Shown here: piece after piece, positions 41,992 through 42,594 of the stretch
Numbering within the stretch: position 1 is the first letter of the stretch
Layout of the letters: every line of letters begins with the position of its first letter
Assembly (NCBI GenBank): GCA_964016885.1
Contig: OZ024764.1
Location: 2,542,001 to 2,606,000, forward strand
Direction of reading: 5' to 3'
From: Eledone cirrhosa
Lineage: Eukaryota
DNA: 64,000 nucleotides
Translations under genes and position numbers: made by a program
The notes under the pieces: generated by a model
The model's input: only the letters and a program-made list of their open reading frames with translations
What the model was told of the DNA's origin: nothing
Database searches by the model: none

Positions 41992-42119
41992 ATATATGCA
42001 AAATTTCTATTTAAAGTTGTTGGGATACAAGTAAATATATTTATAACCGACATAAAGCACTCGACAAATTTTTGGAGTAGATATACGATATTAATAAATG
42101 GAAACTATATTTATAAAAC

Positions 42120-42197
42120 CATATTTATTTCATTATACATATTTCAGGGATACCACATTAAATTTTGGTATGCCTTCATCAGACAAAATACAATATA
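42120..42197 (-). ncRNA. Minimal type I hammerhead ribozyme (mirror arm, sense to CENPJ)
   Basis: Exact reverse complement of 42426-42503. Confidence 0.75.
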
Positions 42198-42425
42198 TAA
42201 CAGTTTTACAAATAGGTTTGACGTACCCTTTAAAAAATACAGCCATTACTTTTGGAGGCTGTCTGGATAGTGATTTGTTTATATAATAAGTCATAGTGTT
42301 CCATCTTTTTCTAATTGTGTTTAACACTATGACTTATTATATAAACAAATCACTATCCAGACAGCCTCCAAAAGTAATGGCTGTATTTTTTAAAGGGTAC
42401 GTCAAACCTATTTGTAAAACTGTTA

Positions 42426-42503
42426 TATATTGTATTTTGTCTGATGAAGGCATACCAAAATTTAATGTGGTATCCCTGAAATATGTATAATGAAATAAAT
42501 ATG
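42426..42503 (+). ncRNA. Minimal type I hammerhead ribozyme
   Basis: CTGATGA at 42441-47; stem II AGG-c-ATACCA/TGGTAT-c-CCT; GAAA at 42478-81; minimal stem III T-ATGT-A; ATA cleavage triplet ending 42489; stem I TATT(G)TATTTTGT/ATGAAATAAATA. Confidence 0.75.
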
Positions 42504-42536
42504 GTTTTATAAATATAGTTTCCATTTATTAATATC

Positions 42537-42594
<58 letters not shown>

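Follow-up and report, generated by a model that had tools for sequence, protein, structure and literature searches.

How does a perfect palindrome with a hammerhead ribozyme motif on each strand come to lie in a (TA)n microsatellite, and is it an element in its own right or a piece of another one? We addressed this question in a 64,000-nt stretch of the Eledone cirrhosa genome (contig OZ024764.1; hereafter the window), where such a palindrome had been read, from its letters alone, as a ribozyme-bearing, non-coding fold-back retroelement. The analysis indicates that the palindrome very probably consists of two head-to-head copies of the pseudo-LTR, with its hammerhead motif, of a Hydra-clade Penelope-like element (PLE), set in (TA)n and likely produced by one 5'-truncated insertion.

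Layout of the palindrome and its hammerhead motifs

Repeat analysis of the window resolved two inverted arms, 42078-42300 and 42323-42545, each of 223 nt and 100% complementary, around a 22-nt spacer (42301-42322). The preliminary description was right about the perfection of the arms and the spacer; its arm length of 220 bp (42081-42300 and 42323-42542) fell short because it omits three bases common to the element end and the (TA)n target. Comparison with family copies identified the left, tailed arm (minus strand) as a 5'-truncated pseudo-LTR that extends 118 nt upstream of the hammerhead core. By family alignment, the tail-less right arm (plus strand) is an inverted pseudo-LTR copy, which terminates at the family's short end site, TATCG and then TATAT. 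The spacer, aligned with seven close copies, is element sequence of the right arm (plus strand), with two substitutions relative to all seven. The tail, already recognized as one-sided and about 85 bp long, is found on the left only; it spans ~88 nt (41990-42077, minus strand), corresponds in family copies to 5' UTR continuing toward the ORF, and its terminal GCATATA matches the (TA)n target. Of the flanks, originally given as (TA)n, the left one (41961-41997, from repeat annotation and sequence) is made up of short (AT)n preceded by (GAT)n in which a SINE-like repeat terminates, and the right one (42538-42591, from tandem-repeat annotation) is (TA)27. In one run, 4402 raw reads had loose (AT)n ends at the mirror site, 42081.

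The window as a whole (1-64000) is dominated by tandem arrays with units of 40, 61, 48, 80, 65, 57, 70, 51, 15 and 88 bp, among others. The SINE-like repeat at the left flank occupies 41530-41960, 42794-43072 and 43137-43310, contains an internal triplication of 112 bp and forms an inverted pair at 42879-43310; another copy of it likewise ends in (GAT)n/(AT)n, at 43040-43077. A tRNA-derived SINE-like repeat lies at 43381-43498 and 44510-44627, each copy with an (AT)n end and with Rfam tRNA matches just below threshold. Between them, 43740-44400 holds a 3' fragment of a LINE reverse transcriptase, which we take from its motifs to be RTE-like, with a 96-bp tandem triplication (43978-44279) whose unit also occurs at 18250-18455. 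A second head-to-head palindrome, from a sister subfamily, was delimited by inverted-repeat and marker analysis at 44612-45116. It is 87-89% identical to the first, has its tail on the right and (AT)n on both sides, and its arms differ at a two-base subfamily marker, so that they may stem from two donors or from later conversion.

Pattern matching placed one hammerhead in each arm, at 42441-42489 (plus strand) and 42134-42182 (minus strand), the latter interval holding core, stem II, helix III and cleavage triplet. Across the window the pattern matched six times at four sites, with 1.3 matches expected and six or more in 0 of 100 shuffles; the remaining two sites belong to the second palindrome, which is of the same kind (~44641-45100). 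The right-arm motif (42433-42497, plus strand; pattern match, folding and covariation) has stem I at 42433-42440/42490-42497, the CUGAUGA core at 42441-42447, stem II at 42448-42477, then GAA and the self-complementary AUAUGUAU at 42481-42488. The order CUGANGA, GAA and UH with helices I to III is that of a type I hammerhead, and the predicted cleavage position, after A42489, coincides with the one named in the preliminary description.

Folding gave stem II, whose 9 bp surround a single C-C mismatch, pair probabilities of 0.87-1.0. Stem I, 8 bp including two G-U pairs, reached only 0.42-0.60, and was nearly absent (~0.02) when a single arm was folded from 90 nt upstream. The isolated 78-nt motif was not more stable than its shuffles (z -1.07). 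A covariance-model search, the check named in the preliminary description, gave no hammerhead match when 40000-45000 was run against Rfam at E<=1; its output consisted of microRNA-type hairpins below gathering scores and tRNA-like pieces. The support for the hammerhead therefore comes from covariation. Twenty representatives of related motifs were chosen by eye from motif clusters, and among the 15 that aligned by length all nine stem II pairs showed two-sided changes (covariation term -2.21 kcal/mol), in keeping with the hammerhead core first proposed for each arm. The helix III octamer was self-complementary in 20 of 20 representatives, in five variants, a count in which only the inner pairs are informative since the parsing pattern fixed the outer bases. 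Because helix III is self-complementary, the ribozyme is likely of the dimer type, as far as can be judged from sequence. Further hammerhead-like families are abundant in the flanks of loci L003-L161, some sharing this self-complementary helix III and others of different design, and the genome is rich in hammerhead-like motifs.

In the palindrome itself the ribozyme is predicted to be silent. The arms are head-to-head, so the antisense arm is transcribed first on either strand and a 223-bp RNA hairpin would form; a transcript across both arms folded into a hairpin of ~-365 kcal/mol, in which every stem I and stem II pair had a predicted probability of 0. The original notion of a ribozyme on each strand holds for the sequence and is predicted to fail for the both-arm transcript. 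A ribozyme dimer in cis within the palindrome is impossible, as each strand carries one sense copy. The single locus is probably dead, an ordinary transposon piece.

The parent element

The preliminary description had called for a genome-wide search for further copies and a coding parent, and both were found. In the 3.0-Gb genome, the arm yielded 2,319 first-look candidates, 40 of which were scored and gave 42 matches at 97-100%; the exact core pattern, which covers several subfamilies, matched at least 12,367 times (6,305 + 6,062; control 0). Fragments of reverse transcriptase (RT) and of a GIY-YIG endonuclease lie between distant arms, and a protein search returned 150 scored matches at 90-100% identity. 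Among 20 loci selected for long ORFs, 11 have the arm and tail directly 5' of the ORF, and 17 have a same-strand arm 0.9-1.8 kb past the stop codon. In an intact copy, the tail end is followed by 43 nt and then by the ATG of a 742-aa open frame. Judged by its sequence, then, the arm is the pseudo-LTR and 5' UTR of an abundant coding PLE and not a family of its own. This agrees with the early assignment of the hammerhead to the type found in Penelope pseudo-LTRs. The proposal of a separate, non-coding fold-back retroelement is not supported: a coding PLE has the arm and tail as its 5' UTR, the palindrome's junction occurs once in the genome, and the centres of other palindromes vary.

The parent has a single ORF with the RT motif YRDD and, in C-terminal position, a GIY-YIG motif, VY..YVG. 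Its RWK-type motif reads RIRWRAF (K to R), DKT stands in place of DKG (KSDKTNNLY), and the linker CxCx5C (CNCRNKSNC) is accompanied by CxxC (CDLC) and CxH (CRH); no CCHH was seen when the ORF was inspected by eye. The portions of PMC8557442 available to us characterize the Hydra clade by RWK-like, DKT, CxCx5C, CxxC and CxH motifs and by a (TA)n target, and the parent ORF lines up by eye with Hydra-clade proteins of its supplement. In the window both ends reach (TA)n, as they do in nearly all of the family palindromes listed, which bears out the microsatellite target suspected at the outset. The parent ORF matched no RT or GIY-YIG entry in Pfam, so the assignment to the Hydra clade is made by motifs. 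With both Pfam and Rfam missing it, annotation would overlook the element.

The hammerhead core string of the family does not occur in the part of the PMC8557442 supplement at hand, and our literature search, which left Repbase, Dfam and subscription journals outside its scope, returned no description of the family, although a repeat library may hold it. The parent seems to be a Hydra-clade PLE family that is young, abundant and unlisted, with long open frames. By loop II variant, the closest relatives of the window copy are L071, L039, L036 and L037 (G000:C1:52.41-52.43 Mb); one of their ends sits in (TA)n that comes after the (GAT)n of the SINE-like repeat also flanking the window copy. Another Hydra-type PLE family is represented by an 800-aa open frame at L037:890-3292, which shares 44-46% identity with the first family.

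Head-to-head palindromes and their origin

Head-to-head pairs of the core with a gap of 20-500 nt matched 1,929 times (control 0), a pattern that one locus can match twice, and their junctions vary. We parsed 118 of these palindromes, roughly so for subfamilies without good references and in loci whose choice was biased against short arms. A tail was present on one side in 110, on both sides in three and on neither in five. The arrangement, a 5'-truncated inverted copy beside a sense copy with a tail at one end, is that of inverted PLE insertions, and it bears out the inverted 5' structure anticipated in the preliminary description, here as head-to-head, 5'-truncated pseudo-LTR copies. Breakpoints are concentrated ~85-90 nt upstream of the core: in 47 of the 118 palindromes the end of the longer arm lies 80-89 nt upstream, and a single 11-nt size class, whose mean breakpoint is 83-88 nt upstream, takes in 370 of the 1,929. 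In three subfamily groups this hot spot coincides with a CACT motif, and it likely marks an RNA 5' end. In one subfamily, 254 palindromes are centred within a few bases at the hot spot, in many registers and with several alleles among the first 50 listed.

The two-base subfamily marker tells whether the arms of a palindrome agree. They do in 62 and 189 palindromes, and one of the 252, the second palindrome of the window, is mixed. Two donors as a rule are rejected by this count, since random pairing would give ~94 mixed palindromes, with the qualification that subfamilies active at different times would also reduce mixing. At another locus, L091 (G000:C1:17021612-17021846), the arms differ at six linked stem II/loop II positions, and each of the two alleles is present in other copies.

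How such palindromes would arise can be outlined as follows. The element's GIY-YIG endonuclease would cut (TA)n, and reverse transcription would begin inside the RNA at either the tail end or the arm end; TATAT-type sequence that matches the target occurs at both family ends. Synthesis would halt early, giving 5' truncation, with frequent run-off at the RNA 5' end accounting for the hot spot. The second target end would be joined through a copy of the same stretch in opposite orientation, for which the same template or donor would serve, whether through priming at that end or through fold-back of the cDNA. Arm lengths do not separate twin priming from fold-back (tailed arm longer in 36 of 110, untailed arm longer in 41, equal in 33). 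Where tandem or full-length parents are transcribed, the hammerhead likely acts in dimeric form, by way of helix III. The window copy passes the hot spot, reaching 118 and ~140 nt upstream; it was thus likely copied from a template that contained sequence further upstream, such as the downstream pseudo-LTR of a longer transcript would offer.

A different reading takes the palindrome as a non-coding element, retrozyme- or MITE-like, that propagates itself with borrowed PLE protein, the entire hairpin being copied in one piece. The single size class of 370 palindromes would suit it, as would the 254 that share a centre within a few bases and the recurrence of some exact junctions. The window junction, however, is found once genome-wide, and the hot-spot centres fall in many registers, with at least five arm alleles and both loop orientations relative to the tail, which fits repeated independent events. 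The CACT hot spot is moreover common to three subfamily groups, and the copies lie outside the tandem arrays that retrozyme definitions demand. We regard this reading as very unlikely. Another reading has the inversion arise later than the insertion, from a single pseudo-LTR copy that underwent DNA-level fold-back or template switching; it could draw on a known behaviour of inverted repeats (PMC8604942, in the portion at hand) and on the homogenisation of arms that seems active on palindromes. Against it, the place where the second arm stops is not arbitrary but the family's short end site, with (TA)n next to it, and that arm has 22 nt of element sequence absent from the first arm; inverted pairs also enclose kilobases of element body. 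We give it hardly any credence.

An assembly or long-read fold-back artefact would give arms 100% identical, as observed, and in the four runs searched out of the 23 listed, whose reads were dominated by other family copies, no read or contig spans the junction. Yet both natural ends of the family are found at the outer ends, the two flanks are unlike each other, the tail is one-sided, and ~1,900 other palindromes, older ones with diverged arms among them, have the same architecture. An artefact is therefore unlikely, in our estimate extremely so.

Every arm allele of the window copy is present in at least one of seven close copies, and its only differences from them are in the spacer; since all arm alleles are found in other copies, youth suffices, and it is the simplest cause of the perfect identity. 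Older palindromes suggest a further process. We sampled two older subfamilies, taking 40 of the 50 matches listed for each (of 189 and 62 in all). The ten shortest palindromes were left out of the first set; from the second, the seven shortest, two already in the sample and one likely duplicate were omitted. The sample was chosen after the listings had been seen, and the 30-nt spacer cut-off was fixed before the first result. The ratio of private substitutions shared by both arms to those in one arm was 12:73 at short spacers vs 1:76 at long ones in the first subfamily (p 0.003), and 8:51 vs 0:61 in the second (p 0.003), so that private mutations common to both arms number 20 at short spacers vs 1. 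Pooled by locus, shared private changes occur in 12 of 40 short-spacer and 1 of 40 long-spacer palindromes (p 0.0015); the contrast is weaker at a 60-nt cut-off (p 0.054).

The spectrum of shared changes resembles that of one-arm changes, and RNA editing was rejected as their source, A>G making up only 3 of 52. These results suggest that the arms of short-spacer palindromes were homogenised after insertion, a process known for inverted repeats (PMC8604942, as far as available to us). RT errors copied by fold-back, polishing artefacts or a slight circularity in the spacer estimate may also contribute to the shared mutations.

Taken together, the ~1,900 palindromes could represent one stereotyped, two-ended Hydra-clade PLE insertion: one template, starts at the tail site and the short site through TATAT/(TA)n pairing, frequent run-off at CACT ~90 nt upstream of the ribozyme, and later homogenisation of arms at short spacers. 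We hold this general scheme tentatively, at slightly less than an even chance. Were it true, the genome would contain thousands of hairpin loci with the ribozyme off, a possible source of long double-stranded RNA. The window palindrome itself is ordinary in kind, and its value lies mostly in the tests that the palindrome class permits. PLEs often insert as copies truncated at the 5' end, with an inverted copy alongside and a tail on one side, and PMC8557442, in the text available to us, names these inverted structures and tails an open question, for which the palindrome set provides countable rules and a direct test. Mutations shared between arms offer in addition a genome-wide natural experiment on inverted-repeat homogenisation against spacer length.

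Comparison with known systems

The clade and the type of structure are already catalogued: in the excerpts on which this comparison draws, inverted truncated copies, tails and (TA)n targets are reported in PMC8557442 and opposite-strand hammerheads in PMC4209133. Non-LTR retrozymes (bioRxiv 10.64898/2026.07.22.740005) resemble the window palindrome in being non-coding, derived from pseudo-LTRs and equipped with a type I hammerhead. They are head-to-tail tandems, in which cis dimers are possible, whereas the window palindrome is head-to-head with one sense ribozyme per strand. With fewer than two same-strand hammerheads and no tandem-repeat call, it is, judged by tandem arrangement, not a retrozyme, and a repeated palindromic unit was likewise rejected, its junction matching once genome-wide.

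The hammerhead resembles the minimal type I motifs of metazoan PLEs, with a long helix II and a short palindromic helix III (Cervera and De la Pena 2014, PMC4209133); these are of the dimer type, monomers being inactive and dimers weak. Opposite-strand pairs 100-700 bp apart are described there in Schistosoma. The window motif differs in its first stem II pair, A-U where G-C is usual, and its arms, unlike those hammerheads as excerpted, are perfectly complementary, for which reason its ribozymes are predicted to be sequestered.

A biochemical parallel is Poseidon PAc of Anolis (Frangieh et al. 2024, PMC11167929), which in vitro cuts and extends both target strands. In the sections of that report consulted, two internal RT start sites define the tail and the target is AT-rich, much as proposed here. 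PAc, the one PLE tested in vitro, starts in an AC-rich loop within the ORF and without target homology, whereas in the window family both ends are 5' UTR positions with TATAT-type sequence that corresponds to (TA)n. The tail of 88 nt is longer than the published 30-40 nt (PMC8557442, PMC11167929).

The closest likeness is to the Hydra clade of C-terminal EN+ PLEs (Craig et al. 2021, PMC8557442), exemplified by Hydra-1_Obim and Penelope-13_HM, which has the same motifs and GIY-YIG domain. It shares with the window family the (TA)n target and a hammerhead of canonical type with palindromic helix III. The window family's element is ~4 kb, vs the '<3 kb' stated for the clade, and the hammerhead of Hydra-1_Obim differs from that of the window family. 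The entry for Penelope-13_HM records an inverted, 5'-truncated copy together with hammerheads on both strands, like the palindrome of the window.
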